Assembly (NCBI GenBank): GCA_001785675.1 | Contig: MFUJ01000016.1 | Location: 149-64,148, forward strand | Length of the DNA: 64,000 nt | Direction of reading: 5' to 3' | DNA from: Candidatus Nomurabacteria bacterium RIFCSPHIGHO2_12_FULL_37_29 | GTDB lineage: Bacteria; Patescibacteriota; Minisyncoccia; Phycocordibacterales; UBA9973 | Part shown: positions 27,349 through 59,037 of the stretch, one piece after another | Numbering within the stretch: the stretch's first letter is position 1 | Layout of the letters: every line of letters starts with the position of its first letter | Notes under the pieces: model-generated | What the model was told of the DNA's origin: nothing | Database searches by the model: none | Seen by the model: the letters and a program-made list of their open reading frames with translations, nothing else | Made by a program: the position numbers and the translations under genes

Positions 27349-27355
27349 AAATTTC

Positions 27356-27841: not shown

Positions 27842-27844
27842 AAA

Positions 27845-28528
27845 TTAATTCATTCTCCTTACTTTTTCAAAAAGTAACATAACGATAATAGTAACGACCC
27901 ACAGGAAAGCAAAAACTTTTAAGAAATCATTTCCACTATTCCTTATTATAAAAAAATTAAAGACACTATGCAAGGTAATAGCGAATATAAAGCCGACAAC
28001 AAGATACCATTTTCTCTTTAATCCATCGATGTGCAAGGAAATTCCAAGCGCAATACCCAAAATTCCGCTTGAAACAGTATGTAGAAGAGTGGATCCCAAG
28101 AATCTAAGTTGCCCTGTGAGCAAGCCCACAGTATTTTGACCCATTGAAAATGGTTTTATCAAAAATAATGTATTTTCAAGCGCTGCAAAACCCAAAGCCG
28201 AAGTGATTAAATAAATTGGCCAATCTATAGGTTTATCGGCGTGATTTGTTTTGTAAATAATCACCAAAACAGCCAAATATTTAATTATTTCTTCCGCGCT
28301 TGCCCACAGAACTAGTTCCCACTGGTCAGAGCTTACATGGGCTTGTATAAACTTCTGGATTGGTAAAATGAAGACAACTGCTATCATTCCCATAATGAAG
28401 ACCACAGCAAGGATTCCTTTTGGTTCAGGTTTTTGATTATCTTCTTTAAGCCAGAACCACAGCCACAAAAGAGATGGGACGACTCCGCCCAAAAATGCTA
28501 AACCTAAAATTTTAGGATCATTTGTCAT
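27845..28528 (-). CDS. PrsW-family intramembrane metalloprotease (putative)
   Basis: Polytopic, with ASAEEIIKYLAV (EExxK), LHTVSSGILG and HSVFNFFI (H/FN) motifs resembling PrsW. Confidence 0.5.
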   Translation of the reverse strand: MTNDPKILGLAFLGGVVPSLLWLWFWLKEDNQKPEPKGILAVVFIMGMIAVVFILPIQKFIQAHVSSDQWELVLWASAEEIIKYLAVLVIIYKTNHADKPIDWPIYLITSALGFAALENTLFLIKPFSMGQNTVGLLTGQLRFLGSTLLHTVSSGILGIALGISLHIDGLKRKWYLVVGFIFAITLHSVFNFFIIRNSGNDFLKVFAFLWVVTIIVMLLFEKVRRMN

Positions 28529-30683: not shown

Positions 30684-30715
30684 TCCTAAATAATACCATA
30701 GAATATTAGGTTTTT

Positions 30716-31909
30716 CTATTTTAGTCTTAAATTACCACTTGCTTTTATATTGGAAGCCTTGCCAAATTTTCCTTTCTTTTTTGCATAGAGCAAGTATCCC
30801 GCTATGCCAATCATTAAAGAATTATCTCCCACAAGTTCTTTTGGGGGAAATAGAAGTTTGATTTTATTACTTGCCTGTCCTTTGACGCGACTTGCAATTT
30901 TTTTTATTTCATTTCTCAAGTGTTGATTCGCAGCCACTCCTCCCGCAACAATAAGAGTTTTTACTTTATATTTTTCTATCGCTTTTTTTGTTTTATAAAT
31001 CAAACATTCAATGGCCGCGTTTTCAAATTCTAAAGCTATTTTTATTTTTGTTTTTTCATCTAGTAAACCAATTTTCTTGATTAAGTAAAGAACCGCCGTT
31101 TTCAGTCCCGAAAAAGAAAAATCTAAATTCTTAGAATGAAGCATTGGGCGCGGGAGGGAAAAAGAAAATAAGCTTTGATGGGACTCCACAGGGCGACGGC
31201 CCGAGGACTGAGTAAATTTTTCAGCAGAAAAATTACGACCCTGAAAAGTTTTATTTTCTTTTTCCCTCTCCCTCCCTTCTTCTGCCAATTTAGATATTTG
31301 TGGACCGCCAGGGTAGGGGAGGTCGAGCATCCGAGCAACTTTATCAAAAGCTTCGCCGACGGCATCGTCCAAGGTTTCGCCAATTATTTCATATCGCATC
31401 CACTTTTTACTGAGTACTAACTGTGTGTGTCCACCAGAAACCAAAAGAGAAAGTGTTGGAGTTTTCACTTTGGGTATGGTAAATTTTCCTTTATTTTTTC
31501 CAAATACAGAAAGTATATGTCCTTCCATGTGATTTACAGGCACCACGGGCACATTCCACTTTTTTGTTAACTCCTGCGCAAAAGTTATGCCTGCCCAGAG
31601 CGCTGGTTCTAATCCTGGACCATAAGTCACAGCTATTAAGTCAATCGGTGCTTTGGTCGTTAGGTCTTGCCTAGCGACGTTGTTTAGATGGGCTTGCTTT
31701 AATGCTTGTTCTAGCAGAATTGGTAAATTTTTAATATGTTCTTGTTTAGCGAGCATTGGATATACTCCGCCATAAGGAATATGGATTTTTATTTGCGAAT
31801 TTGAAATATCCGCCAAAACTTTGAAAGAAGCATTATTAATGCCTCCTTTTGCTTCCACTATACTTATTCCAGTATCGTCGCAAGATGTTTCAATCGAAAG
31901 AATGATCAT
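30716..31909 (-). CDS. tsaD: tRNA N6-adenosine threonylcarbamoyltransferase TsaD (Kae1/YgjD family)
   Basis: MIILSIETSCDDTGISIV and GVAANQHLR. Metal-binding HxxH in NHMEGHIL. 397 aa with an internal insertion. Confidence 0.85.
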   Translation of the reverse strand: MIILSIETSCDDTGISIVEAKGGINNASFKVLADISNSQIKIHIPYGGVYPMLAKQEHIKNLPILLEQALKQAHLNNVARQDLTTKAPIDLIAVTYGPGLEPALWAGITFAQELTKKWNVPVVPVNHMEGHILSVFGKNKGKFTIPKVKTPTLSLLVSGGHTQLVLSKKWMRYEIIGETLDDAVGEAFDKVARMLDLPYPGGPQISKLAEEGREREKENKTFQGRNFSAEKFTQSSGRRPVESHQSLFSFSLPRPMLHSKNLDFSFSGLKTAVLYLIKKIGLLDEKTKIKIALEFENAAIECLIYKTKKAIEKYKVKTLIVAGGVAANQHLRNEIKKIASRVKGQASNKIKLLFPPKELVGDNSLMIGIAGYLLYAKKKGKFGKASNIKASGNLRLK

Positions 31910-31999
31910 GTTAATTAATCAGGGGCAAAGTTCTTTTAGTTCTTTCTTCATTACTATAAATCAAAAAAAATTATTTTAATTTGACTTAATTCAGTTATA

Positions 32000-32386
32000 T
32001 TATTGTGTTGTTACACCGTCAAAGTGCTCCTCTTTCTCGTCCATTTTAGTTTTCTGTATCGTACCATCTTGATGTTCTGGTGGTGAATATAGTGTATAAA
32101 GTTTCAGATCAAGAGAACCAGTGTTTACAATATTGTGTCGAGTGCCTTGAGGGATCATAATTGCTTCATCGGTGCCAAAGCTATGTTCTTCACCATCAAT
32201 TATTGCCCTAGCTTCTCCTTCCTCAATACGAATAAACTGGTCAAGCTTATGAACTTCTTCCCCAATTTCTTCGCCAGGCTTTAGGTTCATTAATACAAGC
32301 TGGCTATTTTTTGCGGTATAAAGCACGCGACGGTAATCAGTATTCTCTTTTGTTGCTTTTTCTATATTGATTTTAAATCCTTTCAT
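32000..32386 (-). CDS. cupin-domain protein
   Basis: VLMNLKPGEEIGEEVHKLDQFIRIEEGEARAIIDGEEH...IPQGTRHNIVNTG is the cupin two-motif pattern. Confidence 0.6.
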   Translation of the reverse strand: MKGFKINIEKATKENTDYRRVLYTAKNSQLVLMNLKPGEEIGEEVHKLDQFIRIEEGEARAIIDGEEHSFGTDEAIMIPQGTRHNIVNTGSLDLKLYTLYSPPEHQDGTIQKTKMDEKEEHFDGVTTQ

Positions 32387-32448
32387 ATTCTTGGTTTATG
32401 TGTTTAATTATAATAAAAAACCTATCTTACAATTATACCACAATCTTA

Positions 32449-32467
32449 GTGCCGGGAGGGAGACTCG
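32449..32467 (-). repeat. 19-bp direct repeat duplicating the 3' end of tRNA-Leu(TAG)
   Basis: gtgccgggagggagactcg at 32449-32467 is identical to 32562-32580 (the tRNA 3' acceptor/T-arm), 94 bp away. Confidence 0.7.
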
Positions 32468-32562
32468 GTCACAGGTCTTTTTCTATTGAAAAAGCCTGCG
32501 ACCCCACCTCGACACGTCTGTCTCCGGCTTTCGAGTCAGCACAAATATATAACATATCTTTG

Positions 32563-32644
32563 TGCCGGGAGGGAGACTCGAACTCCCAAGGGTTGCCCCA
32601 CTAGTTCCTAAGACTAGCGCGTATACCAATTCCGCCATCCCGGC
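32563..32644 (-). tRNA. tRNA-Leu (anticodon TAG), type II
   Basis: Reverse complement folds as acceptor GCCGGGA/TCCCGGC, anticodon stem CTAGT/ACTAG with loop CTTAGGA, a long variable arm, and T-arm GGGAG-TTCGAGT-CTCCC. No encoded CCA. Confidence 0.75.
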
Positions 32645-32766
32645 AAAAATCAAACCGTTTCGCACAAAGTGCGTTAGCACTTTGTGCGCCTAATTGTAGC
32701 AAATTGGAACCTTATTTTCAATCAAATAAAGGGTTTTTCGTTTGTTTAGTAAAAAATTAAATTTTT

Positions 32767-33127
32767 ATGTTTGCCATTTACAGTTTATACATTTTATGTT
32801 ATAAGCTATTTGAAGGAGTCAAGATCTTGGGACAAAATTTCGCAGCGATGTGTTATGTGGCGGCCGCAGTCCGAGCTGGACAATTACCAGACAAAGATCG
32901 TACTGACGCCGAAATACAGGCGTTGTTCACGGCAAGTTGTCAGACCCTACCACCATGCCCCAAATGCAATCGGACAATGGTCAGTAGCGGGGGTCAATTT
33001 CACTGCACCGTTCACGGCGATCCGACGCTGTTACCCAACGAGGAAGTTAGTGACGAGGCGTGGATGGGAGCAGAACGTAACCGTCTATAATTCAAAAGGG
33101 TCGAGAGTCTCATACTCTCAAGGATAG
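32767..33127. other. GC-rich ~400-bp segment open in two overlapping + frames; candidate structured ncRNA or small Zn-ribbon protein
   Basis: About 50% GC against about 33% in the flanks. ORFs of 107 and 118 aa lie in frames +1 and +2 over the same DNA. The first contains CPKCNRTM...HCTVHG. Sits inside a minus-strand tRNA cluster. No RNase P, tmRNA or SRP core motifs found by eye. Confidence 0.3.
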
Positions 33128-33325
33128 CCAGACACACCGAAAGGAGGTAAGGTGCCTGGCTATTTTCAATTTCAACACAGAATGATTTTGTGGTCAGGAA
33201 TAATTTTGTTTTTGTCAAAACAAAATTTTCACGACCCTGCCTCGTCTATTTTTTCTGCTGAAAAAATATGACTCCGGCTCGCACAGCTAAAAAATCTACA
33301 GAAGTGCAGATTTTTCTTTACGCTG

Positions 33326-33398
33326 TGCGCCCAGTAGGGATCGAACCTACGACATTCTCCTTAAGAGGGAGCTACTCTACCAGCTGAGTTATGGGCGC
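33326..33398 (-). tRNA. tRNA-Lys (anticodon CTT)
   Basis: Reverse complement GCGCCCA-TA-ACTC-AGCTGGTAG-AGT...GCTCC-CTCTTAA-GGAGA...GTAGG-TTCGATC-CCTAC-TGGGCGC-A. 73 nt. Confidence 0.75.
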
Positions 33399-33508
33399 AT
33401 ATAATACATTTATCTTCTATCTTCTAATTTCAAACTACATTTACTAATATCTCGTCCTACCAAAACACTTATGGGCGCAAAAAATTTAATTTTCAAAAAA
33501 CTCTCAAG

Positions 33509-33590
33509 TGCCCGAGGTGGGAATCGAACCCACATCCCTTACGAGACACGATTTTAAGTCGTGCGCGTATACCAATTCCGCCACTCGGGC
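33509..33590 (-). tRNA. tRNA-Leu (anticodon TAA), type II
   Basis: Reverse complement GCCCGAG...CACGA-CTTAAAA-TCGTG, long variable arm, GTGGG-TTCGATT-CCCAC, acceptor 3' CTCGGGC and discriminator A. 82 nt. Confidence 0.75.
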
Positions 33591-33607
33591 ATATTTATTT
33601 TGCCTGG

Positions 33608-33679
33608 AGGCCTGGGGCGGAATTGAACCGCCGTATATTCCTTTTGCAGAGGAATGCCTTACCACTTGGCTACCAGGCC
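33608..33679 (-). tRNA. tRNA-Cys (anticodon GCA)
   Basis: Reverse complement GGCCTGG-TA-GCC-AAGTGGTAA-GGC...TTCCT-CTGCAAA-AGGAA...GGCGG-TTCAATT-CCGCC-CCAGGCC-T. Discriminator U, as expected for Cys. 72 nt. Confidence 0.75.
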
Positions 33680-33720
33680 GATATCATATTTAACAAAACT
33701 TTAACTTATTAATCTTAAAA

Positions 33721-33776
33721 CCTCTGCGCAGAGGAATGGCATATTCGCTACGCTCACGCCACTTGGCTACCAGGCC
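33721..33776 (-). pseudogene. tRNA-Cys 5'-half-like fragment
   Basis: The reverse complement begins GGCCTGGTAGCCAAGTGG, identical to the first 18 nt of tRNA-Cys about 90 bp away. It then diverges into CGTGAGCGTAGCGAATATGCCATTCCTCTGCGCAGAGG and ends in the palindrome cctctgcgcagagg. No T-arm or acceptor 3' strand. Confidence 0.5.
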
Positions 33777-33809
33777 ATTTTCAAACTATAACCTATAACC
33801 AACAACCTA

Positions 33810-34133
33810 TCAACCGTTCCGAAGCAGTTCGTCAATTTTTTGTCTATTCTTTTCGCCGAGATCTATGGCAAAGTCAACGAAAGGAACATTTTTTGTTGCC
33901 ATATTCTTTTTCAAGAATTCACGGAATTCTTTCCTTTTTCTTTTTGCAAAGAGGAACGCTGTATGTTCTTTAGAAAGTGGGAGTACTGTGATAAATATAG
34001 TCGTGCGTTTTAAGTCCGGGGAGGTGGTAGCAGAGGTTACAGTAATAAGGGAAGTTCTATTATTTTCACGTGCCAAAAATCTTGCAGCAAGCTCTTTTAT
34101 ATAATTCGCTACCTTCTCATTTCTTTGTGTCAT
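33810..34133 (-). CDS. rbfA: ribosome-binding factor A
   Basis: 107 aa. RNEKVANYIKELAARFLAREN...TSLITVTSATTSPDLKRTTIFITVL is RbfA KH-like. Located immediately downstream of infB, the conserved gene order. Confidence 0.7.
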   Translation of the reverse strand: MTQRNEKVANYIKELAARFLARENNRTSLITVTSATTSPDLKRTTIFITVLPLSKEHTAFLFAKRKRKEFREFLKKNMATKNVPFVDFAIDLGEKNRQKIDELLRNG

Positions 34134-34167
34134 TTTAATTATGAGTAAACGAAAATTTAAAATTTTT

Positions 34168-35718
34168 TTACATCTGCGCTACTCTAAATAATTCTATAAT
34201 ATCGCCTTGCGCAATCTCTATTTTTGATTCAATCATCATGCCGAATTCGTTTCCTTCGTCTACTTCTTTTGTTTTTATTTTATTCTTTTCCAGATTTACA
34301 ATTTTTCCGCGTCCAATTTCAAATTCTCGGCGCATAATTCTAACTGTTCCATTTAAAATAATTTTGCCCTCTGTCACTTTTCCACCCACTATTTGGCGAT
34401 CCTTGGTGCGACTGAAAGCCCGAATGATTTTCGCCCGGCCTGTCGTCTCCATTGTTTCAATTCTGGGTCTTAACTTTTCCATTTGTATTTCAAGCCATTC
34501 TGTCATTTTGTAAATAATGTCAAAAAAAGAAATAGTAATTCCTCTTTTTTCTGCTATCTCAATGGCACTTTTATCTGTTTTTACATTGAATCCAATTATT
34601 ATTACATTTTCGCCATTTGATAAGTTCTTTACGTCTGATTCTGAAATGGGTCCCACGCCTTTACCTATGATTTTAAATTCCGCTCCCTCATTTTTTATTT
34701 TGGCAATTTCTTTTTCAATGGCTTCGAGCGTGCCAGACACATCAGCTTTTAGTATTATTGGGATTATTTTTTTATCTTGATTCTTGTCGGGACTTTGGTG
34801 TTGATTGGGGTCTTCTTCTCTATTTCTCGTTTGCCAATTTTCAGCATCTTTTTCAGCATCTTTTTTATTTTTAAAAGTTTTAAAACAGCTTCCGACTTTC
34901 GGTATTTTATTAAAGCCGAAAATGCGTATTGGAGAAGAGAAAGACATTTCGTCTATGATCACTCCTTTATAATTTTCCATTATGCGTGTAGAGCAAATAC
35001 TATCTTCCACGACGACCGTCATTCCTTTTTTTAGGGATCCATTTTTTATAATTAGAGTTGCCAGTATTCCGCGCCTAGAATCAAGATTTGCTTCAATTAC
35101 GAAACCAGACGCATCTTCGTTTGGATTTCCGTTGAAATTTTCCATTTCCGCTACAATCAGAATCAATGATAATAAATTATCTATACCCGTGCCAATTTTG
35201 GCGGAAATTTCCGCATAAGGAATTTTGCCTCCGTAATTTTCCAAATAAATTTCACTTTCGGCTAATTCAGTTTTTGTTTTTTCAATATTGGCTCCCGGTT
35301 TATCTATTTTATTTATTGCCACAATACAGGGGAGTTTGCCCTCCGTGATTGTTTTCCAAGCTTCAATAGTTTGGGGTTTTACACCATCTTCAGCTGATAC
35401 TACCAAAACAGCAATATCAGCAATTTGCGCTCCGCGTTGTCGCATTTTCGAAAAAGCTTCATGTCCTGGTGTGTCCAAAAAAGTTATTTTTCGCGACCAG
35501 GATTCCCCTGGTGTCGGTATTTCTACCTCATAAGCGGAAATGTTTTGAGTTATACCCCCGATCTCTTTTTCTGCTATATTTGTTTTTCTGATATAGTCAA
35601 GCAATGTTGATTTACCGTGATCAATATGACCCATAACCACTACCACTGGCGGCCTCGCCTGTAAGCCTGTGGCCGAAGGGCGAGCTATTCTATTTTGTTT
35701 TGTATTATTTTTCTCCAT
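34168..35718 (-). CDS. infB: translation initiation factor IF-2 (short form)
   Basis: [43 protein letters not shown]. The G-domain is followed by beta-barrel domains. 516 aa. Confidence 0.85.
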
Positions 35719-35821
35719 GAATTATCCCAGATTGTAAGATTTTAGAGCACGGATATTTTTTTGCTAAAAAAATCCTCGTGTTAGCTTACGTTGCGCTTGC
35801 AAGTCTCCAAAACCCTACAGC

Positions 35822-36298
35822 CTACCTTGATACCACTTCCGCTTTTTTCAATGCTTCTTTTTCTTCAGCCGAAAGCTCGTACTCTGATTTGTTATTTTTA
35901 ATAGATTTAGCAAATACGCTCATTCGTTCACGAGAATATAAACTTGAAATTACCACACCATCACCATCTTCATTCAGCATTCCAATTGCAAAGCTTTGAT
36001 TGCTACCCTGATCAGGGAAAGGATTAAAGCGTATGGTCTCAAGTCCGCGGATACTTTTTCTTAGTTTTTCATTAATTAGAACAATATCTTTTTGCATAAA
36101 CTCTTTCGTTTTATTTAATTCCGTAATATTTTTTTCTAAACCCAGGATAGTATCCTCTAAATCTTTCGCTTTTTTACCAAGGAAAAATCTTTTTAAACGT
36201 TTCTCTGTAATGATAATCCAAATAGTGATAATGGTTACCACTATTCCAATTAAAATAAAAAAAACCAAGAAAAAAACACTGTCGAGCTTTATATTCAT
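35822..36298 (-). CDS. hypothetical membrane-anchored coiled-coil protein
   Basis: N-terminal TM helix (VFFLVFFILIGIVVTIITIWIII) and a coiled coil. No known domain. Confidence 0.35.
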   Translation of the reverse strand: MNIKLDSVFFLVFFILIGIVVTIITIWIIITEKRLKRFFLGKKAKDLEDTILGLEKNITELNKTKEFMQKDIVLINEKLRKSIRGLETIRFNPFPDQGSNQSFAIGMLNEDGDGVVISSLYSRERMSVFAKSIKNNKSEYELSAEEKEALKKAEVVSR

Positions 36299-36322
36299 AC
36301 GAGGATAATATATACTATTTTT

Positions 36323-37564
36323 ATGCTAAAATCAAATAACGCAAAAAAAATATATCTAGATTATGCATCCAGTTCGCTTCTTAACTCCGCGAATCCAGGA
36401 GCAATTCATGAATTTGGAATAAAAGAAAAAAACAAACTTGAAGAAGCCAGGACAACTGTTGCAAAGACTTTAAATGCATATCCCAATGAAATTATTTTCA
36501 CATCCGGCGCAACGGAAAGTAACAACTTGGCTATTTTAGGGTTAGTTCAGAATTTTAAGCAATATTCTAAGTTGCCACACATAATAACTACAAATATCGA
36601 ACATTCATCTGTTTTAGAAATTTGTAAACATTTAGAAAAAACAAAACAAGCAGAAGTGACTTATATAAAAGTAGAATTGAACGGAATAATTGATCCAAAG
36701 AAAATAAAAAAAGCCCTTAAAAAAAATACCATCTTAGTTTCGGTTATGTATGCGAATAATGAAATTGGTACGGTCCAGCCGATACAAGATATTGCAAAAG
36801 AGATTAGACATTGGAAAAAAGGCAAAGATAGCTTTTTGGAGCACAGATATTTTTCTGTTGAAAAATTCCTCGTGCTTACGCCGTCAAGAGTTTCTAAAAA
36901 GCTATCTTTGCCTTTTTTCCATACCGATGCTACACAAGCAATAAATTATTTACCCATAAATGTTCAAAAATTAGGAATTGATTTAATGTCTTTTAATAGT
37001 GCTAAAATTTATGGACCTAAAGGGGTCGGTGTCTTATATGTAAAAAAATACACACCTGTCAGGAAAATTATGTTCGGTGGAGATCAAGAAAGGGGACTAC
37101 GACCGGGAACAGAAAATGTGGTCGGGGCTATTGTGTTAGCCTCTGCCATAGAAATTACTGAAAAAATAAAAAAAAAGGAAACTATTCGTTTAACCAAACT
37201 CCGAGATTATTTTTTTAATGAGCTACAAGCAATGTCAAAGACGATCTTTAGCACTGGATTAATAGTAAACGGTGACTTAACAAACAGATTACCCAATAAT
37301 GTGAATATTAGTTTTAAAAATATTCCGAGCGACCTTCTGGTAATTGAGTTATCAGCTAGAGGTATCATGGCTTCTGCTAAAAGTGCCTGTAAAGCTGGAG
37401 ACAGTAAAGCTTCGCATGTAATAAAAGCGATTAATCCAAAAGCCAAAGACACAGATGGATCTTTAAGATTTTCCCTAGGCAAAGATACTACAAAAAAAGA
37501 TATTGATTATACTGTCAAAGCTTTTACTCAAATTTTGACAAAACTAAAAAAGTGGTATAATTAA
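36323..37564 (+). CDS. cysteine desulfurase (IscS/NifS, class V aminotransferase)
   Basis: IYLDYASSS near the N-terminus, TSGATESNNLAI, a PLP-lysine region SFNSAKIYGPKGVGVLYV, and active-site loop SAKSACKAG. Confidence 0.75.
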   Translation: MLKSNNAKKIYLDYASSSLLNSANPGAIHEFGIKEKNKLEEARTTVAKTLNAYPNEIIFTSGATESNNLAILGLVQNFKQYSKLPHIITTNIEHSSVLEICKHLEKTKQAEVTYIKVELNGIIDPKKIKKALKKNTILVSVMYANNEIGTVQPIQDIAKEIRHWKKGKDSFLEHRYFSVEKFLVLTPSRVSKKLSLPFFHTDATQAINYLPINVQKLGIDLMSFNSAKIYGPKGVGVLYVKKYTPVRKIMFGGDQERGLRPGTENVVGAIVLASAIEITEKIKKKETIRLTKLRDYFFNELQAMSKTIFSTGLIVNGDLTNRLPNNVNISFKNIPSDLLVIELSARGIMASAKSACKAGDSKASHVIKAINPKAKDTDGSLRFSLGKDTTKKDIDYTVKAFTQILTKLKKWYN

Positions 37565-37567
37565 GGG

Positions 37568-38344
37568 ATGGATATCAAGGATCTAAATAAATCACAGCTT
37601 ATATTGATCGCAGTGCTTTTAAGTTTCGTCACTTCTATTGCTACAGGTATTACGACAGTGACCTTAATGCAACAAGCACCAGCATCTTTTACCGTACCCG
37701 TCAATCGTATTATTAAACAGACAGTTGAGAAAATACAACAGGTGGAAGGCAAGACCACAGTGCAGACTGTTGTTATAAAAGAAGAAGATTTAGTAGTGGA
37801 TGCTATTGCTAAAAATAAATTGGCCGTATTTACTGTAAGCAAAGAAATTTTAGACATAGAAGGGAAGACTATTGAAGTTTCAGCTGGCAGGGGATTTGCT
37901 ATTTCTGCTGATGCTATAGTAGTAGTTGATGGCAATCTTGTGGGAGATTCAGGAGTCTATTATCTTAAGAATGATAGTGGGAAATTCAAAATGGATTTTA
38001 TATCCACGGACAAAGCTGGATTTTCATTTCTTAAAATTGGTGCTCCACTTGATGAAAAAAATAAAATAATTTTTACAGTACCTACTTTTGGAGATTTGGA
38101 GAAAATGAAAATAGGACAAAAGGTTTTAGTTTTAGGTAGCAATATATCTTCTTCTATTTTTGAAGGAATAAATATTGATATTAATGTTACAAAATCAAAT
38201 GCTGGGGGGCTGGTTCTTAATTTAGATGGTGAAGCTATTGGTATTGCTCTCTCTGGTGAGATGACAGACTTTGCTTCAATTGGTGTTATTAAGGATGCTC
38301 TCGAAGTTGTTATGAAAAAAATTAAAACACCCCAAACACTTTAA
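37568..38344 (+). CDS. hypothetical membrane-anchored protein
   Basis: N-terminal TM helix and a beta-rich body with faint trypsin-like PDZ-less resemblance. Unassigned. Confidence 0.3.
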   Translation: MDIKDLNKSQLILIAVLLSFVTSIATGITTVTLMQQAPASFTVPVNRIIKQTVEKIQQVEGKTTVQTVVIKEEDLVVDAIAKNKLAVFTVSKEILDIEGKTIEVSAGRGFAISADAIVVVDGNLVGDSGVYYLKNDSGKFKMDFISTDKAGFSFLKIGAPLDEKNKIIFTVPTFGDLEKMKIGQKVLVLGSNISSSIFEGINIDINVTKSNAGGLVLNLDGEAIGIALSGEMTDFASIGVIKDALEVVMKKIKTPQTL

Positions 38345-38374
38345 AAAATAACTTTATAAACTTTAAATCTATAT

Positions 38375-41101
38375 ATGCCACCATTAAATAAATTTACAAC
38401 AAAAGCTAAAGACGCGATAAAGAAAGCCCATGAACTTGCCATCGAACGGGGAGTTAATCACGTTTCCTCACTTCATTTATTAGCCGCATTACTCTTACAA
38501 GAAGAGTCCATGGTAAATTCTATTTTAGATAAGTTAGAGATTGACACAATGCTTCTGACTGATTCTGTTTTAGAATTAATAGAATTACCTGAGTCTCGTA
38601 GTACTCTCTCGCCCGCGTATCAGATTTATCTCAATCCAGATCTAGCACAAGTCATAGAGCAGTCAGCTAAATTGGCGGAATATATGAAAGATGATTTTGT
38701 TTCAACAGAACATCTCTTTATTGCAATTCTAGAAGTAACAAGCGAAGCCCACGAGACCTTAATGCGATTTAGAATTAACAAAGATTCTGTAATGAAAGTT
38801 TTAGAAGAGTTGCACAGTCAAAACATTACCGATGTAACAGAGCCGAAGAAATTCAAGTTGCTTTTGAAGTACACTCGCAACTTAACCAAGTTGGCCAAAG
38901 AAGACAAACTGGATCCGGTTATTGGTCGAGATAGTGAAATAATGCGTATTATGCAGATACTTTCTCGTAGAACAAAGAACAATCCTATTTTAATCGGTGA
39001 AGCTGGCACTGGAAAAACAGCAGTTGTGGAAGGACTTGCTCAGTTGATTGTAAAAAATAATGTTCCAGAATCTTTAAAAGACAAGGAGCTTGTTTCTCTC
39101 GATTTAGGATTACTTGTTGCCGGTACAAAATACCGCGGAGAATTTGAGGAGAGATTAAAAGGTATTATGAAAGAAATTGAACGATCAGATGGAAAAATTA
39201 TTCTTTTTATTGATGAAATTCATACAATTGTTGGTGCTGGGGGTGCAGAAGGTACAATGGATGCCTCAAATATGTTGAAGCCCGCATTATCTCGTGGCGA
39301 GTTGCGGGCTATCGGCGCGACGACACTAAGAGAATATCAAAAGCACATTGAGAAAGATCCGGCCCTGGCTCGGCGTTTTCAGCCAGTTTATATTGATGAA
39401 CCTGGAGTAGAAGATGCAACGGCCATACTACGTGGTCTAAAAGAAAAGTATGAACTTTTCCATGGCGTACGAATTACTGACGATGCTATAGTCGCCGCAG
39501 TGAATCTCTCTGCTAGATATATTACAAATAGATTTTTGCCGGATAAAGCAGTGGATCTAATAGATGAAGCTTCTTCTTCTCTTAAAATAATGCTTGAAAA
39601 TAAACCACCAGTCTTGGAAGATGCGCACAGAAAAATAATGCGTCTAGAAATTGAGAAAGAAGCGCTGAAAAAAGAAATTAGTTCTTTGAGTGGAGAGAAA
39701 AATAAAGAAGAGAAAGAGAAGGAGAAAGAAATAAAAAATAGAATAAAAGAAGTGGATAGTGAAATAGGTAATCTGCACGAGAAGACAAAAGAACTTGAGC
39801 TAAAATGGCAGAATGAAAAATCAATCGTAATTGAAATTCGTACTATTAAAAAAGACCTTGAAAGTTTGCGTCTGGAGGCCGAAAATGCTGAGATGCGAGC
39901 GGATCTTTCTCGTGCCGCGGAAATCCGTTATGGTAAAATTCCTGAGCTTAAAAAAGAATTAGAAATAAAGCTTCTACGATTAAAGAAACTTCAAAAATCG
40001 CGGAGAATTCTAAAAGAAGAAATTACCTCTGAAGATATAGCCGAGGTGGTAGCTCGTTGGACAGGAATACCACTTAATAAAATGCTTGAAGAAGAGCGGG
40101 CGAAGCTTGAGAAAATGGAAATGGAATTAAAAAAACGAGTTATTGGCCAAGATGAAGCTATCTCTCGCGTTGCCAATGTGATTCGTCGCTCTCGTGCAGG
40201 CATCGGAGATCCCAACAGGCCTATAGGTTCTTTTATATTTCTGGGACCTACGGGAGTCGGTAAGACCGAGCTTACTAAGGCATTGGGGCAATTTATGTTT
40301 AACGACGATCGCGCAATTATTCGCGTGGATATGTCTGAATATATGGAAAGGCATTCGATGTCAAAACTCATAGGTTCTCCCCCAGGGTATGTTGGTTACG
40401 ATGAATCTGGTCAACTCACTGAATCAGTCAGACACAGGCCCTATGCTGTAATACTCTTTGATGAAATTGAAAAAGCTCATCCGGAAGTTTTTAATATACT
40501 TTTACAAGTTATTGACGAGGGAAGGCTAACTGATGGCAAGGGCAGAGTGGTGAATTTCAAGAACGCCATCATTATTCTTACTTCCAATATTGGTTCACAA
40601 TTTGTTGAGAAAATGGAATCAATCGGATTTTCTAATAATTCTGACAGACAAGATTATAGCAACATGAAAGAAAAAGTTATGGAAGCCTTGAAAGACCATT
40701 TTCGTCCAGAATTTTTAAACCGTCTTGATGAAGTTGTTGTTTTTGATATCTTGGGAGAAGAAGCTATAAAAGAAATAGTTAATTTAAGGATACAAGTAGT
40801 GAAAGATCGATTGATCGGGAAGGGTATTGATTTTGAAATTGGAGATGATGCGCTCTCGTATTTAGCCAAAGAAGGTTATAATCCGCATTATGGCGCAAGA
40901 CCTCTTAACCGCTTAATTCAAAATAAAATCTTGAACCCTGTTGCGTCATACATTATTGGGAATGGAGTAAAGAAAGGGGATACGGTAATTGTCTCTGTGA
41001 AAGGAACGGAACTTGTCATTGAAAAGAAAAAAAATCTGTCTACTGGTCGGCAGGTCAAAATCAAAAGTCCTATTCGTGTACGCTCTCGCTCTTCGGTTTA
41101 A
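38375..41101 (+). CDS. clpB: ATP-dependent chaperone ClpB
   Basis: Clp N-domain, two AAA+ modules (GEAGTGKTA and GPTGVGKTE Walker A) and a coiled-coil M-domain between them. 908 aa. Confidence 0.9.
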
Positions 41102-41158
41102 AAATAATACATGGGGAAGTTTTGTGTACTCAAAAGATGCAAAAAAAGATTTTTTGTG

Positions 41159-42874
41159 TTATTTTGTGTGGGTGCGAGAGCAATACCTCACCCAAGGTAG
41201 ACAAGCGTCGGTACTCAAGTGGTCAACGAGGGCAGACTGTAAATCTGCTGGCTTCGGCCTCCGAAGGTTCGAATCCTTCCCGGCGCACAACCTAGGACGA
41301 ATTGGTGCGAAAGCATCAGTTCGTCCTTGCGCGTTATGATTATTTTTCCGTTCCAACCGCTCAATTTCAGGCATGAGCTCTTTTTCGCCTTTTTTAAGCA
41401 CCGAGAACCAAGAATGCAGATCAATAAAGAGTTTTCTAGATTCTATCTGTTGGTTCAAACCTAAACTACTTAGGATCTCCCTTTGTATTTGTGTATCGCC
41501 CTTTTGTAAGGCTATACTCGCACAATATGCAAAATGAACAACATTTTCAGTAAGTTCAGTCCAATTCTTTGCGCGTGTTTCAACCTCAGACAATTTTATT
41601 TTTTCTTTCTTAAGTATTTCTTCGAGTTCATGTTTTTGAGTATTGTATTCTTCTCTCGTGATAGTGCCGTCAATAAGAAAACCAAGGATACGATCTAATT
41701 TCTTTTGACCCTCTTCAACATTCTTTAGATGGGTTTCGTAAATTTGCTGACGCGTGCCTGTCTCGGTCTCATGCATTTCTTTCAAAACTTCTAATCCCAA
41801 CTTATAAAACTTCGGATTAATGTGATTTGTCTCTATAAGACTTTGCACAGCAATCTCCAGCTCATCCAGTCGTATTGGTTTTTCTTTGCAATCAATATAT
41901 TTTCTGCGTTTAGTGCAATGATAATAAGTATGGTAGTTAATAGTTCCATCCTTCAAGATTTTGTGCTTTTTTGAAGCTGTAATACATGCTCCACAACCAC
42001 CGCATGTCATAAGACCAGTAAAGGGAAAATCATGCTTCTGTGGCCGAGGCCGGCCTTTCTTACCCATTAGCACTTGCACCCGATCAAATTCCTCCATAGA
42101 GATCATTTGTTCATGATTGCCTTTATAAAGTTGCTTGTTGTAGTAAAAGTTTCCAGTGAAAAATATATTGCTAAACAAAAGATACATATAGCTTATTGAT
42201 AGAGGTTTTCCACCTAGCTTCTTTCTATTCGGTGTTCGCAAACCTAATTCATCAGTCGCTATCTGTAATATTTTTGGGATTGTATAATTTCCTGTGAGCA
42301 TTAAGTCCCACATCTTACGAACAATTAGGAAGCGTTCTCTATCGGTAATTATCGTCTCGTTTCCTTTTTCATGAGTTTTTGAATTTAGATATCCAATGGG
42401 CGGAATATTAGGGAACCATCCTTTTTCTGCCTTCGATCTCATTCCTCGTTTTACATTTGTAGATAAATCACGAATATACTGACTAGACATTCCACTTTCG
42501 ACTGACATTATGATGGCGTTGTCTTCCGGAAAATAATTCTTTTCTGGGGTCTTAATACAAAGTAATTTTTTCTTCTCCAAAAAATATTGTACTGCTCCAT
42601 TGTCTATAGCATTTCTACCGAGCCTATCCATTTTCCACACCAGAAGACCATTAATTTTCCCTTGCTCAACTAATTTCATGAGTTCAGTGAACCCATCTCG
42701 CTTGTATGGCTCTTTCGCAGATTTTGCTTCTTGGATTATTTGAACAACCTTGAGATCTTCTCGGTTTGCTAATACTTTTAGATTATTAATTTGATCGTTA
42801 ATGGATTGGATTTGTCGATCAGACGACTCAGTTGATTTTCTGGCGTATATTGCCCATCTAATATTTTTATCCAT
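41159..42874 (-). CDS. large serine recombinase (resolvase/invertase N-domain + recombinase domain + zinc ribbon); 3' end reads antisense through tRNA-Tyr
   Basis: MDKNIRWAIYARKSTESSDRQIQSINDQI carries the catalytic Ser in the YARKST context. Recombinase domain and a CGGCGAC...C zinc ribbon follow. The last ~45 codons are antisense to tRNA-Tyr (41205-41287). Confidence 0.75.
   Translation of the reverse strand: MDKNIRWAIYARKSTESSDRQIQSINDQINNLKVLANREDLKVVQIIQEAKSAKEPYKRDGFTELMKLVEQGKINGLLVWKMDRLGRNAIDNGAVQYFLEKKKLLCIKTPEKNYFPEDNAIIMSVESGMSSQYIRDLSTNVKRGMRSKAEKGWFPNIPPIGYLNSKTHEKGNETIITDRERFLIVRKMWDLMLTGNYTIPKILQIATDELGLRTPNRKKLGGKPLSISYMYLLFSNIFFTGNFYYNKQLYKGNHEQMISMEEFDRVQVLMGKKGRPRPQKHDFPFTGLMTCGGCGACITASKKHKILKDGTINYHTYYHCTKRRKYIDCKEKPIRLDELEIAVQSLIETNHINPKFYKLGLEVLKEMHETETGTRQQIYETHLKNVEEGQKKLDRILGFLIDGTITREEYNTQKHELEEILKKEKIKLSEVETRAKNWTELTENVVHFAYCASIALQKGDTQIQREILSSLGLNQQIESRKLFIDLHSWFSVLKKGEKELMPEIERLERKNNHNAQGRTDAFAPIRPRLCAGKDSNLRRPKPADLQSALVDHLSTDACLPWVRYCSRTHTK
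41205..41287 (+). tRNA. tRNA-Tyr (anticodon GTA), type II
   Basis: Acceptor GCGTCGG/CCGGCGC (one G-U pair), D-stem CTC/GAG, anticodon stem GCAGA/TCTGC with loop CTGTAAA, long variable arm GGCTTCGGCCTCC, T-arm GAAGG-TTCGAAT-CCTTC. No encoded CCA. Confidence 0.75.
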
Positions 42875-43017
42875 ATATTTTTTGTCCCAAAAAAGGGGCA
42901 ATAGTTAAGATCCTGTAATCGCTAAACCACAAGACCACTATTACCCCTTTTCTGGATTGAAAATATGGAATCTTATTGTCTCGTGGTTTAGCTTATTAAT
43001 TATATCATGTTTTAAAG

Positions 43018-45225
43018 TTAGAAAGGCAATTCCTCTGGAGGAAGAGGATCTTTCTTTGGAGGATTAATCTCATTATCGATATCTGAATTTACCCCACCCT
43101 CTTCACCACTATATTTTTCGCTTCGCTCACTTTCAGTTTCGAGAGGAATAACGACCATTTCCCTCATATCATCTACACTTTTTTCTTGAAAAATAAGGCC
43201 GACCCCCTCTAGCTGAGGCAAAATTTGATGTCTAAGTTTCTGTGTACCGAGTGGCGTTTTATATACCTGAAAATATTTCTTGAGGATTTCTTTTCTAGTT
43301 ATGGATTTTTTCTTGTCAGCGTTATCTGAAAATTCTCCAAAAGTGTCGCTTGGCTCGTTCCAAAGGGTCATAATAACTTTCGTATAAATATCAAACAAGT
43401 AAGGAGCTAGCCCATAATCCTGTCCGCAGTATATAACTTGCCAGAGATCAAATGCTTCCTCTATATCCTTCTCTGAAGCCCATATGTAATCACCATCGCG
43501 CTTTCTAAACCATATATTAAGCATGGCAAAACCTTTTATTATCGATATTATTTTTTTAATATCCCGTTGCTGTCTTGGTCTTGCACTTTCCACATCTTTT
43601 AAGTAAAGCTTTTCTATATATTCAATATTCTCGATTTTTACATCAATAATATTTTCTTGTTTTATTCCAAGAATTCTCTTTTTAAGCAAGTTTCTCCGAG
43701 GATCTGAATTTACTTCTTGATTAAATTTTTCACTATCTGAGTTTTTTCGTATGGCTTGTTTTACGCCTTGATATATTTTTTCCCGTTCGATTGACGGACT
43801 AAGCATTAAAAATCTAGTGCTTTCTTGTTCATCAACTCTCATTTCAGCACTACAGAAGTAAACGCTCGGGAATCCTATCAATACAATATTCTTTGTTTTA
43901 TTGCCTCCCTTCTGCGCCTTGTCTGTTATTTTTAATCGCGATTCTTTTTGATCATGTGAGAGAACAGGACGCAGTCTTGAAATTAATGCTTGATCTGGCA
44001 TATCGGTAAAGATTATTATTTTTCTTGCTAGATCAACTACAATTTCATTTTTTTCTTTATTATATTTACCTTGTTCATGAAAAAAAGCTGTAGGTGAACA
44101 ATACGCAAGAGTTATTACATCTTCTTGTGGAAAAAGTTCAACAACTGATAATGGTATATGTGATTTTCCAGTAGAGCTAGGTGCGTTAAAGAAAAGATTC
44201 ATTTGTGCATCCTCTGTGTATGTCGTAAGCATAGATAGAAATGCAACTGATTTATTGCCATCATCTTTTTTTATAGTAGAATCCAGAATCTCACAAACTT
44301 CTTTAATACTAATTTCTTTAAATTCAGAAGTGTCCACTTTTTCTGGAAATGGTTTTGCATATTTAGTAAATAAATCTTCTATGGGTAGACCTAGATGAAT
44401 TATATAATCTCCAAGGTCGCCCTTATTACCAACTTCTTCTGGGAGCGTAATTATATTTATTTTTTCACAGCCAGCGTTAAATAACGCATTGGCCAGTTTA
44501 TTTGATCCATTCTTGCCGACATCATCATTGTCATAGCAAATAAAATATTCAAGTTCGGGTTTAAAATGTTCAAACCACAACTCGTCAATTGTCATCGCTC
44601 CATGAGTATTGGTAATACAAGTTATCCCATGTGATTTCATAAGAAGGGCATCCATCTCACCTTCAGCGATCAAAACCCTGTCTTTGGCCATTATGAGGCT
44701 TTCCCAGTCATAGATTTGTGCTTCTATGCCGTTCGGCCAAGTCATTTTTTTATCCCCATATTTAGGGTCTTGGCGTAGCTTAAGGAAGCTGTAATTACCA
44801 TTCAAATCTTTAATAGGTATAGCTATCCACCAAGTTCCGTATTCGGAAATATACCCAACTTTATATTGGCTTATTCTATCGTCTGTAATACCTCTCTTGT
44901 TAAGATAATTAATAATCTCGGGAGTGAGAGCTTTGTGATACTTTTCGACCAATAAAGGTGTAAGTGTTCTTTTATTAACTTTCGGTTTTTCTTCTTTGGG
45001 AGTGAAGGGGTCGTTGAAGTGTTTTTTAAGAGTAAGGATATTTCCTTTGGCATCACACTTTTTACAATGATATTGACCAGTTTTTCTACTAAAATATAGA
45101 TGCGCCTCATTCTCTCGGCTATCCGAATCACAATTGGAAAAAAAACATTTTACAATAATCTCTTCATTAGTAATGCGAATAAACTTTATTGCCTTATCAT
45201 CTAGATATTTTTCTATGTCGCTCAT
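43018..45225 (-). CDS. primase-helicase-like replication protein (Zn-finger + Toprim primase + P-loop NTPase)
   Basis: N-terminal CHC2-like zinc finger (CFFSNC...HLYF...YHCKKC). Toprim motifs LIAEGEMDAL and ICYDNDDVGKNG. Walker A NAPSSTGKSH. Confidence 0.65.
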   Translation of the reverse strand: MSDIEKYLDDKAIKFIRITNEEIIVKCFFSNCDSDSRENEAHLYFSRKTGQYHCKKCDAKGNILTLKKHFNDPFTPKEEKPKVNKRTLTPLLVEKYHKALTPEIINYLNKRGITDDRISQYKVGYISEYGTWWIAIPIKDLNGNYSFLKLRQDPKYGDKKMTWPNGIEAQIYDWESLIMAKDRVLIAEGEMDALLMKSHGITCITNTHGAMTIDELWFEHFKPELEYFICYDNDDVGKNGSNKLANALFNAGCEKINIITLPEEVGNKGDLGDYIIHLGLPIEDLFTKYAKPFPEKVDTSEFKEISIKEVCEILDSTIKKDDGNKSVAFLSMLTTYTEDAQMNLFFNAPSSTGKSHIPLSVVELFPQEDVITLAYCSPTAFFHEQGKYNKEKNEIVVDLARKIIIFTDMPDQALISRLRPVLSHDQKESRLKITDKAQKGGNKTKNIVLIGFPSVYFCSAEMRVDEQESTRFLMLSPSIEREKIYQGVKQAIRKNSDSEKFNQEVNSDPRRNLLKKRILGIKQENIIDVKIENIEYIEKLYLKDVESARPRQQRDIKKIISIIKGFAMLNIWFRKRDGDYIWASEKDIEEAFDLWQVIYCGQDYGLAPYLFDIYTKVIMTLWNEPSDTFGEFSDNADKKKSITRKEILKKYFQVYKTPLGTQKLRHQILPQLEGVGLIFQEKSVDDMREMVVIPLETESERSEKYSGEEGGVNSDIDNEINPPKKDPLPPEELPF

Positions 45226-45924
45226 AAATTTTTGTTGTTAAATTGATAAACTGCTTCTAATAAACACACAAGCGAAGTCAGCTCAACTCGAGCTTGAGCC
45301 TTGTCAATTGGTTGACCATACTCTTCGAGATAGATGGCCACATATTTTTCTATTTGCTTCTCGGTAATTGGCATAAATAGAAAATCCACTTTTGGCTTGG
45401 CAGGCTACTGAGCAAGCGACCTGCAAACCCAAAAATGGATTTATTAGTGCTCAGTATTTACTGCCAAACAAAACAACCGCACTTCATAATGCGGTTTATG
45501 AAAGCAAAAAGCTGCCGTCATATTCCATGTCATCATGAAATAAAACGGCAGCCTCTCGATTTTTCCTGCCCAGTGAGATTCCTAGTCTCTTGTACAACCT
45601 TCTGTCTTAGAGAAGGCGCTCCGATTTACCGGAGAGGTGTGCATATATAATAATGCTAAAAAAATTCAAGTCAAATGAGGGGTGTTAATAAGTTTAAGAA
45701 AAAAAGTAAGATGTGATAAGATGTTGTTATAACTTAATAAGAAAGACCTAACCCTTATAGCGATATGAGATATGGTCAAAAGACCCATGGAAGACACTGA
45801 ACCCCTCGTTCAGCAACTCTTCCATGGGCTATACAGGGAAACTTGTATAGGGTCGTAAGACCTAGCTGGCGTGGGGTTCTGTGTTTTTCCGCGCTAGCTT
45901 ATTATCAGCTAGCTTTTTATTTTT

Positions 45925-46308
45925 ATGGCAATAGATAAACAATGGGAAGAGAATATGCAACAGCTTAAAAAGTCGGCTAGAAGAAAAGAAATTTTAATTA
46001 AGTTTGTATTACTACCGACCTTAATTATTGGGGTTATACTTTTTCTCTTTCGCCATCAAATTTTTGACAGAGAATTAACACCAGAGGAGATAAGAGCATC
46101 ACAAGAAAACTTTGATCAGATGATGTTAAAATCGATTGAATCTTCCGAAAAAGCATCTCTTGAAAAATCGCAGGAAGAGAAAGCTAAAGGTGATTGTATT
46201 AAAACCGCCATTTCAAATGGAGAAGTAGCAGAAACTTATCTTCAGAAATGCGCAAATGAATCCTCTGAACGCCAAAGAGAGAAGTATGGGAGCGGAGTTA
46301 GTAATTAG
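45925..46308 (+). CDS. hypothetical small membrane-anchored protein (element cargo)
   Basis: 127 aa, one TM helix (FVLLPTLIIGVILFLF). Confidence 0.3.
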   Translation: MAIDKQWEENMQQLKKSARRKEILIKFVLLPTLIIGVILFLFRHQIFDRELTPEEIRASQENFDQMMLKSIESSEKASLEKSQEEKAKGDCIKTAISNGEVAETYLQKCANESSERQREKYGSGVSN

Positions 46309-46703
46309 ATATTTCCTTATTTACCCTACACCCCCTGTCTATATTTTCTTAAGGTTAGGAGGTGTAATGTACTAGGATCTGTCTCTTTTTCGGGGTTCTG
46401 TATAAAAGTACTACAATTTTTATGTCAGAGCTTTAATTTTTAGTTTCGGGGGTAGTGGTAGCCTTATACTATAAGGGTTAAATATGACGCAGTTTAGCTC
46501 TCACATAAAAAAATAAAATATAAAAAAGAGACCTTATATTCCTTATATTATAAGCCTCATTTGGAAAAATTGTATGAAATTTTAGTCATTTTTATGGGTG
46601 ATTGCACCTATAATTGTAGTACTTTATAACATTTATGTATTAATTTTAACCAAAAACAAGGTTTTTATATCAAAAATCGATTTTTTATGGTATAAATTCA
46701 ACT

Positions 46704-56125: not shown

Positions 56126-56129
56126 TTTT

Positions 56130-59015: not shown

Positions 59016-59037
59016 TTATCATTTAACTAGAAAATAT

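Follow-up and report, generated by a model that had tools for sequence, protein, structure and literature searches.

In the model systems of large serine recombinases (LSRs), the attachment site attP lies outside the integrase gene. Integrases that hold attP within their own gene are known from the SSV-type systems (SSV1, pTN3 and pT26-2; PMC8371274), which are archaeal tyrosine recombinases that target tRNA genes through long tRNA identity and whose gene is split on integration, near its N-terminus, into two inactive fragments. In this study, we have analyzed a recombinase gene in a stretch of 64,000 nucleotides from Candidatus Nomurabacteria bacterium RIFCSPHIGHO2_12_FULL_37_29 (contig MFUJ01000016.1, positions 149 to 64,148; the whole stretch is called the window below), whose open reading frame (ORF) runs antisense through a complete tRNA-Tyr gene. 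We conclude that this ORF very probably represents attL, the left junction of an integrative element of 11.1 kb inserted at the tRNA-Tyr 3' end, with attP inside the recombinase gene itself and the C-terminal tail of the enzyme exchanged upon integration; this att architecture is well supported by several independent lines of sequence evidence. As in the SSV-type systems, attP is in the integrase gene, the target is a tRNA, the gene is partitioned and the module is compact. Unlike them, the window system has a serine recombinase, is mostly bacterial, exchanges the last 30 codons and uses a core of 6-8 bp. Phage_integr_3 (PF16795), by which SSV-type integrases are recognized, is absent from the window protein, in which Pfam finds serine-recombinase domains only; attP does lie inside the gene, and 530 of the 560 codons, with every recognized domain, stay in one window ORF after the partition.

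Other described systems share parts of this layout. The RAP44-like phage of Riemerella (PMC12169736, 2025) also inserts at a tRNA 3' end (tRNA-Ser), and its integrase gene loses a 43-bp 3' fragment to attR; its enzyme is of the tyrosine (XerD) type, the identity block measures 19 bp, and this single case was read as an aberrant fragmentation. Islander/TIGER islands and tycheposons are likewise small elements at tRNA genes, with a tRNA-proximal integrase, a primase/helicase and cargo; unlike in the window element, their tRNA is rebuilt from a long direct repeat, and the pairing that defines an Islander island (a direct repeat of the tRNA 3' segment, typically tens of bp long, with a tyrosine integrase) was not found here. 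In mycobacteriophage BPs, attP reportedly lies in the repressor gene and integration is said to remove a degradation tag, in work ascribed to Broussard et al. in 2013. This integration-dependent immunity would follow the same logic of an attP that alters a C-terminus, the gene being the repressor in BPs and the recombinase itself in the window. With regard to LSRs at such targets, 27 of 937 tycheposon-like elements carry one, and Mageeney et al. (2020) predicted 14 of 297 serine-integrase (S-Int) islands to be at t(m)RNA genes, a use that had "not been reported previously". In a literature search from which subscription journals were mostly left out, we found no description of a tRNA-targeting serine-integrase family, of T-loop mimicry, of a tail swap, or of attP within a serine integrase gene. 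As far as found, the layout is widespread and undescribed.

Results

The recombinase ORF occupies positions 41159..42874 of the window on the minus strand and encodes 571 aa from an ATG at 42874. Its longest extent is 41159..42901 (580 aa from a TTG start), and the ATG agrees with the N-termini of homologs. An earlier note on this sequence had proposed that the recombinase frame stays open, antisense, through the complete tRNA-Tyr gene, and the ORF list and ARAGORN agree on this: the host tRNA-Tyr(GTA) gene (41205..41288, plus strand) lies wholly within the 3' end of the ORF. The peptide quoted at that time, GRTDAFAPIRPRLCAGKDSNLRRPKPADLQSALVDH, is present in the ORF. The tRNA had been placed correctly, and its end, given as 41287, is one base longer according to ARAGORN. 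The tRNA-antisense C-terminus had been estimated at about 45 codons; there are in fact 41 codons past the junction cysteine C530, ~28 of them from the tRNA and ~14 from the host spacer 5' of it, before the stop at 41159-41161. The element supplies codons 1-530 and the host the final 41, and the TGC codon of C530 itself spans the discriminator base and the final two acceptor-stem bases of the tRNA. An open frame antisense to a tRNA is on its own unremarkable (9 of the 24 antisense frames across the tRNAs of the window are free of stops). Judging from the alignments, the non-random feature is that the junction coincides exactly with the end of family homology.

This was seen in a homolog search of 5.8 billion protein clusters, which gave 1967 matches at E<=1e-10 and from which the 120 best clusters were classified by tail. 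Family conservation is continuous and in frame up to "...RPxLC" ("...RPRLC" in the window, with C530 as its last residue), after which the proteins part into separate tail classes. In 78 of the 120 clusters the tail is antisense to a tRNA, with x-G-x-D/E-S/L-N in fixed register; the D/E-S/L-N of these fused tails, GAT TCG AAC, is the antisense of the universal T-loop, and the W that stands four codons before this motif in many of them is TGG, the antisense of CCA. A stop follows within 4 codons of the junction in 19 clusters, and 20 have a native, mutually conserved tail of the form "..[IV][ED]xVRTEL...[IV]P[DN]LSxW"; one cluster is of another kind and two are cut off or partial. When non-tRNA homolog tails were used as tblastn queries, the sole match in the window was at 52389..52300 on the minus strand, encoding CAVLESVRTELMKSPVSPYIPNLSMWADKVK with E down to 1e-10. 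Here the window holds an orphaned native C-terminal tail of 30 aa, AVLESVRTELMKSPVSPYIPNLSMWADKVK (52297..52386, minus strand, stop at 52294-52296), which a hidden Markov model (HMM) of the native tail also matched at E=1e-17. Rejoining codon 530 to this orphan reconstructs an attP-form gene for a 560-aa protein with the native tail of the family.

Two readings of the overlap had been put forward in the earlier note, an att site inside the 3' end of the recombinase gene and an artificially extended ORF. The first is borne out, with the core GCGCAC (41283-41288) 41 codons before the stop. The second is right insofar as host DNA, in place of the native C-terminus, makes up the last 41 codons; its supposed cause, an indel or a mis-called stop, gives way to integration. 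The homology does stop at ~41290, as had been envisaged for a translation artefact, and the tail is unconserved as protein, but the native tail stands 11.1 kb away at attR. That the long ORF results from a sequencing, assembly or annotation error near 41330, the real protein ending before the tRNA, might also be argued from this stop of LSR homology at the tRNA boundary and from the NCBI-derived contig L007, where no gene is called at the recombinase position. We find such an error barely credible in view of the identical 571-aa product on 18 public contigs from several samples, the continuous in-frame conservation to C530, the recurrence of in-frame fusion in 78 homolog clusters and 61 genome loci, and the intact native tail at attR.

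In the sense of the integrase gene, attL reads ...cct agg ttG TGC GCc ggg aag gat tcg aac... (P R L C A G K D S N) and attR reads ...ttc tgG TGC GCt gta cta gag agt gtt aga acg... (F W C A V L E S V R T). The only sequence common to both is GTGCGC, or GCGCAC on the plus strand, and this common core lies at 41283..41288 in attL (tRNA positions ~69-74) and at 52385..52390 in attR. Their comparison, together with the empty site described below, gives an element of 11,102 bp (41289..52390), the bounds being ambiguous within the 6-bp core. The 2-bp crossover must fall within this core, and the crossover site of attP corresponds to codons L529-C530, inside the recombinase coding sequence. The reconstructed attP contains CTAGTACAGCGCACAACCTAGG and has the junction sequence CTAGTACAGCGCACAACCTAGGAC; the junction sequence of attB, CCCGGCGCACCAGAATAGAAC, is chimeric and without a copy in the window. 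Imperfect inverted repeats had been expected at attL and attR, and what we found instead was the 6-bp core and, displaced by 5 bp, a T-loop mimic. When the reconstructed attP and attB were scanned for dyad symmetry, no convincing symmetric centre emerged. The top match of the symmetry scan was an 8-bp inverted repeat, AGGACGAA-N16-TTCGTCCT, at 41296-41329 in the recombinase 3' end beside the core; it may belong to the P arm, form a regulatory hairpin or have arisen by chance.

A natural empty site was found in contig L006 (61.9 kb, ENA sample ERZ4903137). Two stretches of it match the window at 100% identity, nt 1-141 to 41148-41288 and nt 136-7227 to 52385-59476, and overlap in the 6-bp core; its tRNA-Tyr is complete, ending in GGCGCACCA with CCA kept. 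This alignment indicates that the insertion is precise. The predicted attB 24-mer is also present in L009, a syntenic relative. The name of L006 includes k141 and the contig starts 141 nt before the junction, which suggests an assembly-graph branch at this point and, with it, the co-existence of occupied and empty sites in the sample; a false join from a 6-bp repeat cannot arise at k=141. Almost all contigs encoding the exact flanking host proteins carry the element, L006 being the sole empty one. Upon integration, the encoded 3' end of tRNA-Tyr is turned from ...GCGCACCA into ...GCGCACAAC, so that the integrated tRNA gene ends in GGCGCAC-AACC and its encoded CCA is gone. The other tRNA genes of the window (25521-41288) are mixed in this respect, with CCA encoded for Arg, Phe and Cys and not for Gly, Leu (two genes) and Lys, which implies that CCA addition must be available to the organism.

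Since tRNA 3' ends are the classic target of tyrosine integrases, whose genes usually abut the tRNA, one could suspect that the tRNA-Tyr belongs to the element or that this is a classical tyrosine-type tRNA island with long direct repeats. This is very hard to sustain here. Searches of the window for a second copy of the tRNA-Tyr 3' half or flanks (up to 3 mismatches; BLAST at word size 7) returned chance matches only, the empty L006 keeps the complete tRNA, the shared core is just 6 bp, and no tyrosine recombinase was found by Pfam among the element ORFs scanned. The sequences indicate instead that the recombinase gene overlaps the tRNA because it forms the left junction of the element, with the attachment site within its own 3' end. 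In the circular form, the gene would continue into the other end of the element and encode the 560-aa enzyme with its conserved 30-aa tail. Recombination in the core GCGCAC joins the gene to the antisense strand of the tRNA, giving codons 1-530 followed by 41 host-derived codons, and strands the native tail 11.1 kb off at attR; tRNA-Tyr is left intact save for the encoded CCA.

The two arms beyond the core suggest how these sites may be read. On the attB side, the tRNA T-loop GTTCGAA (TTCGAAC in integrase sense; 41267..41273) lies 10 nt after the core and is the putative zinc-ribbon motif. On the element-side (P') arm, a T-loop mimic, GTTCTAA (TTAGAAC in integrase sense; 52364..52370), lies 15 nt after the core and differs from the T-loop antisense by one base. 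In 6 of 6 attL/attR pairs the motif of the tRNA arm starts at +10/+11 from the core end and that of the element arm at +15/+16 (the tRNA motif of L072, CTTGAAC, was read by eye), and the 5-bp outward offset of the mimic is also present in the homologous pair L013/L015. With the crossover in the 6-bp core, the motifs would occupy about half-site positions 18-24 in attP and 13-19 in attB. For LSRs, PMC3783163 describes the motif bound by the zinc-ribbon domain (ZD) as lying, in attB as compared with attP, 5 bp nearer to the middle of the site, and a phiC31 cryo-electron microscopy (cryo-EM) preprint is likewise cited for this shift. By sequence, the offset of the mimic thus matches a published LSR hallmark, in one arm only. 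The "V-R-T" of the native tail is encoded by GTT AGA AC, third positions included, in 10 of the 13 sequences of a codon-level alignment, which points to a constraint at the DNA level. A mirrored T-loop motif placed by hand in the second arm was dropped for its inconsistent axes. On these grounds, the zinc-ribbon domain might read the universal T-loop TTCGAAC as the attB motif and the mimic TTAGAAC, 5 bp further out, as the attP motif, and the recombinase domain might read the acceptor and T stems and so confer tRNA specificity. A shared T-loop with stem-based specificity would ease jumps between tRNA types and would explain how relatives come to use at least 11 tRNA types.

The protein itself is an LSR. 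Pfam assigns Resolvase (PF00239) to residues 8-152 at E=2.7e-19, Recombinase (PF07508) to residues 184-270 with 23.8 bits against a cut-off of 21.1, and Zn_ribbon_recom (PF13408) to residues 284-344 with 36.8 bits against a cut-off of 25.3. In an alignment of 27 sequences, Y10, R12 and S14 of the Y-x-R-x-S nucleophile motif are invariant, as are the zinc-ribbon ligands C294, C320 and C329, with C291 nearly so. An AlphaFold2 (AF2) model was made of P0036, a free-form homolog 64% identical to the window protein by BLASTP, and not of the window protein; its mean pLDDT (predicted local distance difference test score) is 75. Coiled-coil helices (363-411 and 416-443) are inserted between the zinc-ribbon strands of this model, and its best Foldseek matches are the SPbeta, phiC31, Bxb1 and LI integrases (E=1e-17 to 1e-8). 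On its domains, the modelled fold of the homolog, the core size and the motif offset, the window recombinase is to be counted among the LSRs. It shares with phiC31, Bxb1, A118/LI and SPbeta SprA the order of domains, the coiled coil in the zinc ribbon and the fold, as well as short att sites, a tiny core and an attB ZD motif 5 bp closer in. Unlike these enzymes, it targets a tRNA 3' end with the T-loop as outer motif, holds attP in its own coding sequence and exchanges its C-terminal 30 aa, and the P0036 model has an extra C-terminal extension of three helices (~75 aa) beyond the zinc ribbon. With regard to annotation, the NCBI-derived contig L007 (MFUT01000015.1) lists no gene at 8727-10644, and the ENA-derived L008 lists the 571-aa recombinase at 7823-9538. 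The tRNA overlap may be the cause of the missing gene call in L007, and integrases of this family may be systematically under-annotated.

In a family scan of 185,579 species, each represented by a single genome, there were at least 591 matching places, from which 80 loci were fetched. Among the matches listed, most are labelled Patescibacteria/CPR (candidate phyla radiation), some are metagenome-assembled genomes (MAGs) labelled Gammaproteobacteria, Chitinophagaceae or Clostridia, and one is labelled Methanosarcinaceae. An antisense tRNA stands at the 3' end of the gene at 61 of the 80 loci: His 22, Asn 9, Asp 9, Trp 7, Gln 4, Ser 4, Tyr 2, Ile 2, Glu 1 and Lys 1. At these 61 loci the median tail beyond the tRNA 3' end is 12 codons long (range 3-104), tail length varies with tRNA type, and the ORF reads through the whole tRNA at 8 of them. 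The earlier suggestion that complete overlap of a tRNA by a serine recombinase is unusual therefore holds for full read-through and not for the overlap itself, which is the rule. As the length of the fused tail is set by the stop positions of each tRNA type, the tail, and with it the read-through peptide, looks like an accident and not a selected peptide. Several MAGs labelled Gammaproteobacteria that carry family genes have chromosomes below 1 Mb (for example OZ246416.1, 886 kb), and such labels may be unreliable. In the MAG labelled Methanosarcinaceae (L079, 9022-10635), a member 41% identical to the query is fused to an antisense tRNA-His, which could reflect cross-domain spread or a binning error. 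A viral-contig scan returned relatives at <=36% identity only, which argues that this is not mainly a phage family.

Other members repeat the arrangement of the window. Orphan native tails after a short copy of a tRNA 3' end were found in L038 (tRNA-Trp, 7-bp core GGCACGG, ~7.1 kb), L043 (tRNA-His, core TGGGGTG, 10.6 kb), L059 (tRNA-Trp, core TTGGCAGG, two copies at 8.5 and 11.1 kb) and L072 (tRNA-Asp, core GTGCGCGA, 9.4 kb). The core is 6 bp in the window, which holds no longer repeat, and 7-8 bp in these four. A strict tail HMM run over the 80 loci found an orphan tail in the window alone, and intact tails in L012 and L025; the four further loci were added by junction-anchored and motif searches. 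Most of the elements probably extend past the 10-kb flank or have diverged tails. The native-tail locus L013 and the tRNA-His-fused L015 share 87% identity across 6.4 kb, with homology breaking off precisely at the core TGGGGT. At 84-86% identity, native-tail and tRNA-fused proteins interleave (P0036/P0018, P0048/P0047 and P0006/P0003). In L120 and L121 the native-tail gene lies between a Prim-Pol gene and more element genes, and no tRNA is present. For P0043 and P0066, a native-tail and a tRNA-fused LSR, the longest contig listed has the same length, 51,523 bp; they apparently stand on one contig, which would mean two family members, or two states, in a single genome. In L059, two attR-like junctions (~484-560 and ~3076-3150) lie upstream of a single tRNA-Trp-fused LSR gene, which points to related elements in a tandem or nested arrangement.

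Next to the recombinase gene, the window element encodes a Toprim primase/helicase-like replication protein of 735 aa (43018..45225, minus strand; Pfam Toprim_2), and homologous primase/helicase modules adjoin the recombinase gene in L013, L120 and L121. The cargo genes lie at 45925..52271 and include, by Pfam, a eukaryotic-type Ser/Thr kinase of 673 aa (46704-48725), an AbiEi-like regulator (48712-49380, minus strand), a serine hydrolase, a pyroglutamyl peptidase, a low-molecular-weight (LMW) phosphatase, a peptidase S51 and a P-loop kinase. The kinase and the LMW phosphotyrosine-phosphatase-like protein occur together within 46704-51063, alongside the AbiEi-like regulator, peptidases and hydrolases, and this cargo might form a module for signalling or defence. 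Neither virion nor conjugation domains were found by Pfam in the element ORFs scanned.

The flank beyond attR is more than plain host DNA. At 52385..52435 (minus strand) lies a relic of the 3' end of an older LSR gene, ASRILASKKPSSSILVR, 16 of whose 17 aa match the C-terminus of a 519-aa LSR adjoining tRNA-Tyr in L009 (8826-10385, minus strand). That gene is intact, 33% identical to the window LSR and tRNA-fused ("...SSSILV|RRGGFEPP*"). The two together mark tRNA-Tyr as a repeatedly used LSR hotspot. By this match, the attB used by the window element appears to consist of the tRNA and the relic of the older element's junction, the relic supplying the non-tRNA arm. The region to the right of attR (hydrolase, TauD, CsoR-CopA, SHOCT, DUF302) may be an older island. 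L009 also has an inverted repeat of 149 nt at 99% identity (8851-8999 and 10583-10731), which duplicates the 3' end of its LSR gene; one copy runs into the tRNA ("RRGGFEPP*"), and a native-type tail ("RLLYQVRTYFQNKVR*") follows the other. A tail-toggling inversion could account for this, or a hairpin assembly artefact near the contig end. Elsewhere in the window, the G+C fraction rises to 0.46-0.55 at ~3000-9000 over a background of ~0.36, probably because of an rRNA operon.

Discussion

Several observations weigh against the interpretation of the ORF as an attL junction with an exchanged tail, or against a role for that tail. The excised circular form of the window element was not observed, the attP 24-mer was not found in viral contigs, and the exact 560-aa attP-form protein is not in a collection of 15 billion proteins. 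The terminal-overlap circularity test of L120-L123 was negative, so that the native-tail contigs are not demonstrably circular, and native-tail genes also occur in contigs of 33-759 kb without a nearby tRNA (L012, L013, L025, L039 and L073). A native tail is therefore no proof of a free element. In L013, for instance, the native-tail gene is followed by metal-resistance genes (cupredoxin, DsbD, CopA) and then by NrdD/NrdG; tandem arrays, nesting, another att site or misassembly could account for native tails in such large contigs. At the level of the sites, the crossover dinucleotide cannot be placed within the core, and no mirrored T-loop mimic is evident in the other attP arm, which codes for "...FASIRPxLC". 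As for the tails, those fused to tRNAs (3-104 codons) carry no sign of selection, much of the "VRT" conservation is a DNA-level attP constraint and not protein selection, and in the distal native tail a short motif alone is conserved, with non-synonymous differences outnumbering synonymous ones.

Whether the integrated enzyme differs functionally from the free form, by an altered directionality or response to a recombination directionality factor (RDF) or by a lower activity, appears to us evenly balanced. We infer such a difference because the native tail has a protein-level motif and because the junction cuts a predicted helix. The distal motif of the native tail, P-Y/H-[IV]-P-[ND]-L-x-x-W, is placed at 50-75 bp from the core, beyond all known LSR footprints, and is kept in relatives at 42-60% identity, with synonymous variation at its codons (CCT/CCC/CCA/CCG and CTA/TTA/CTG/CTT). 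In four close sequences, 6 of the 21 columns of the distal tail are invariant, and 4 of those 6 are synonymously varied. In the P0036 model, the junction falls in the middle of helix 524-551 (pLDDT ~85), which gives way to a Pro-rich loop and then a terminal helix; with the fused sequence AGKDSNLRRPKP, helix 524-551 would be predicted to end early. There is precedent for a role of this region, as acidic residues "at the extreme C-terminus" of phiC31 integrase touch the RDF (phiC31 cryo-EM preprint), and an element at the very C-terminal end of SprA has been linked to directionality, according to what PMC11722253 relates of its reference 49. If function does differ, the structure of the gene itself would record the integration state. 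That the swap alters directionality or the RDF response in particular is a tentative proposal. The more specific version, in which the native tail would be required for integration or bias the enzyme toward it, and the host residues would relax or reverse directionality or silence the enzyme, yielding two state-dependent isoforms, we regard as possible at best and rather doubtful.

It is also conceivable, if short of probable, that the tail swap is a neutral by-product of a compact integrase-att module, with a separate RDF setting directionality and an enzyme that would perform equally well whether its tail is native, junk or missing. The fused tails, fixed by chance stops in each tRNA, would be expected on this account, as would the conservation of GTT AGA AC at the DNA level and the weak conservation of the distal tail. 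In addition, the C-terminal 16-28 residues are disordered in the solved phiC31 and SPbeta complexes, and integrated copies keep intact bodies of 530 codons at all 61 loci. A neutral swap fits poorly with the retention of [YF][IV]P[DN]L..W under synonymous variation, 50-75 bp beyond a plausible att footprint, with the break of a confidently predicted helix at the junction, and with the phiC31 precedent of an extreme C-terminus at the RDF interface.

The intact bodies bear on a further possibility, namely that integration is "suicidal" as in SSV-type systems, the loss of the tail inactivating the enzyme and locking the element until a full-length integrase arrives. This account has in its favour the position of attP within the integrase gene, as in those systems (PMC8371274), the accumulation of related elements and relics at the same tRNAs (the relic at 52385-52435 and the two attR-like tails of L059), which fits frequent superinfection, and the absence of a free form of the window element from public data. 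Even so, we consider it unlikely. The loss amounts to just 30 of 560 residues and touches none of the catalytic and DNA-binding domains, and the integrated genes show no decay over 530 codons, which argues that the fused enzyme is at least not decaying. The empty site with 100% flank identity fits a recent excision, although a site that was never occupied is equally possible.

In conclusion, our results place an integrative element with attP in its own serine integrase gene at a tRNA, and they bear on how this family is found and understood. The attL, the attR and the natural attB provide sequence-level evidence for LSRs at tRNA genes, which the 2020 survey called unreported and in need of proof, and the family is not a rare one, given at least 591 matched places among genomes taken one per species. 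For annotation, this means that gene callers which mask tRNAs, or which trust the long ORF, mis-annotate these integrases, and that tools based on direct repeats miss the boundaries of such islands. The concept of integrases disrupting the gene that encodes them, which had been stated to belong exclusively to tyrosine integrases of archaea, would be extended to bacterial serine integrases in a milder form, as an exchange of the C-terminal tail. The extreme C-terminus of LSRs is poorly understood, and the tail swap offers a natural experiment on this region, which has been implicated in RDF contact and directionality in phiC31 and SPbeta. If the proposed effect of the swap is true, the element would have a built-in memory of directionality without a dedicated regulator. 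The T-loop mimic with its 5-bp offset may provide a simple rule for telling attP from attB at tRNA targets, and it suggests how one scaffold moved among at least 11 tRNA types, which is relevant to the design of integrases for conserved landing sites. If this holds, retargeting may need changes only in the reading of the acceptor and T stems.

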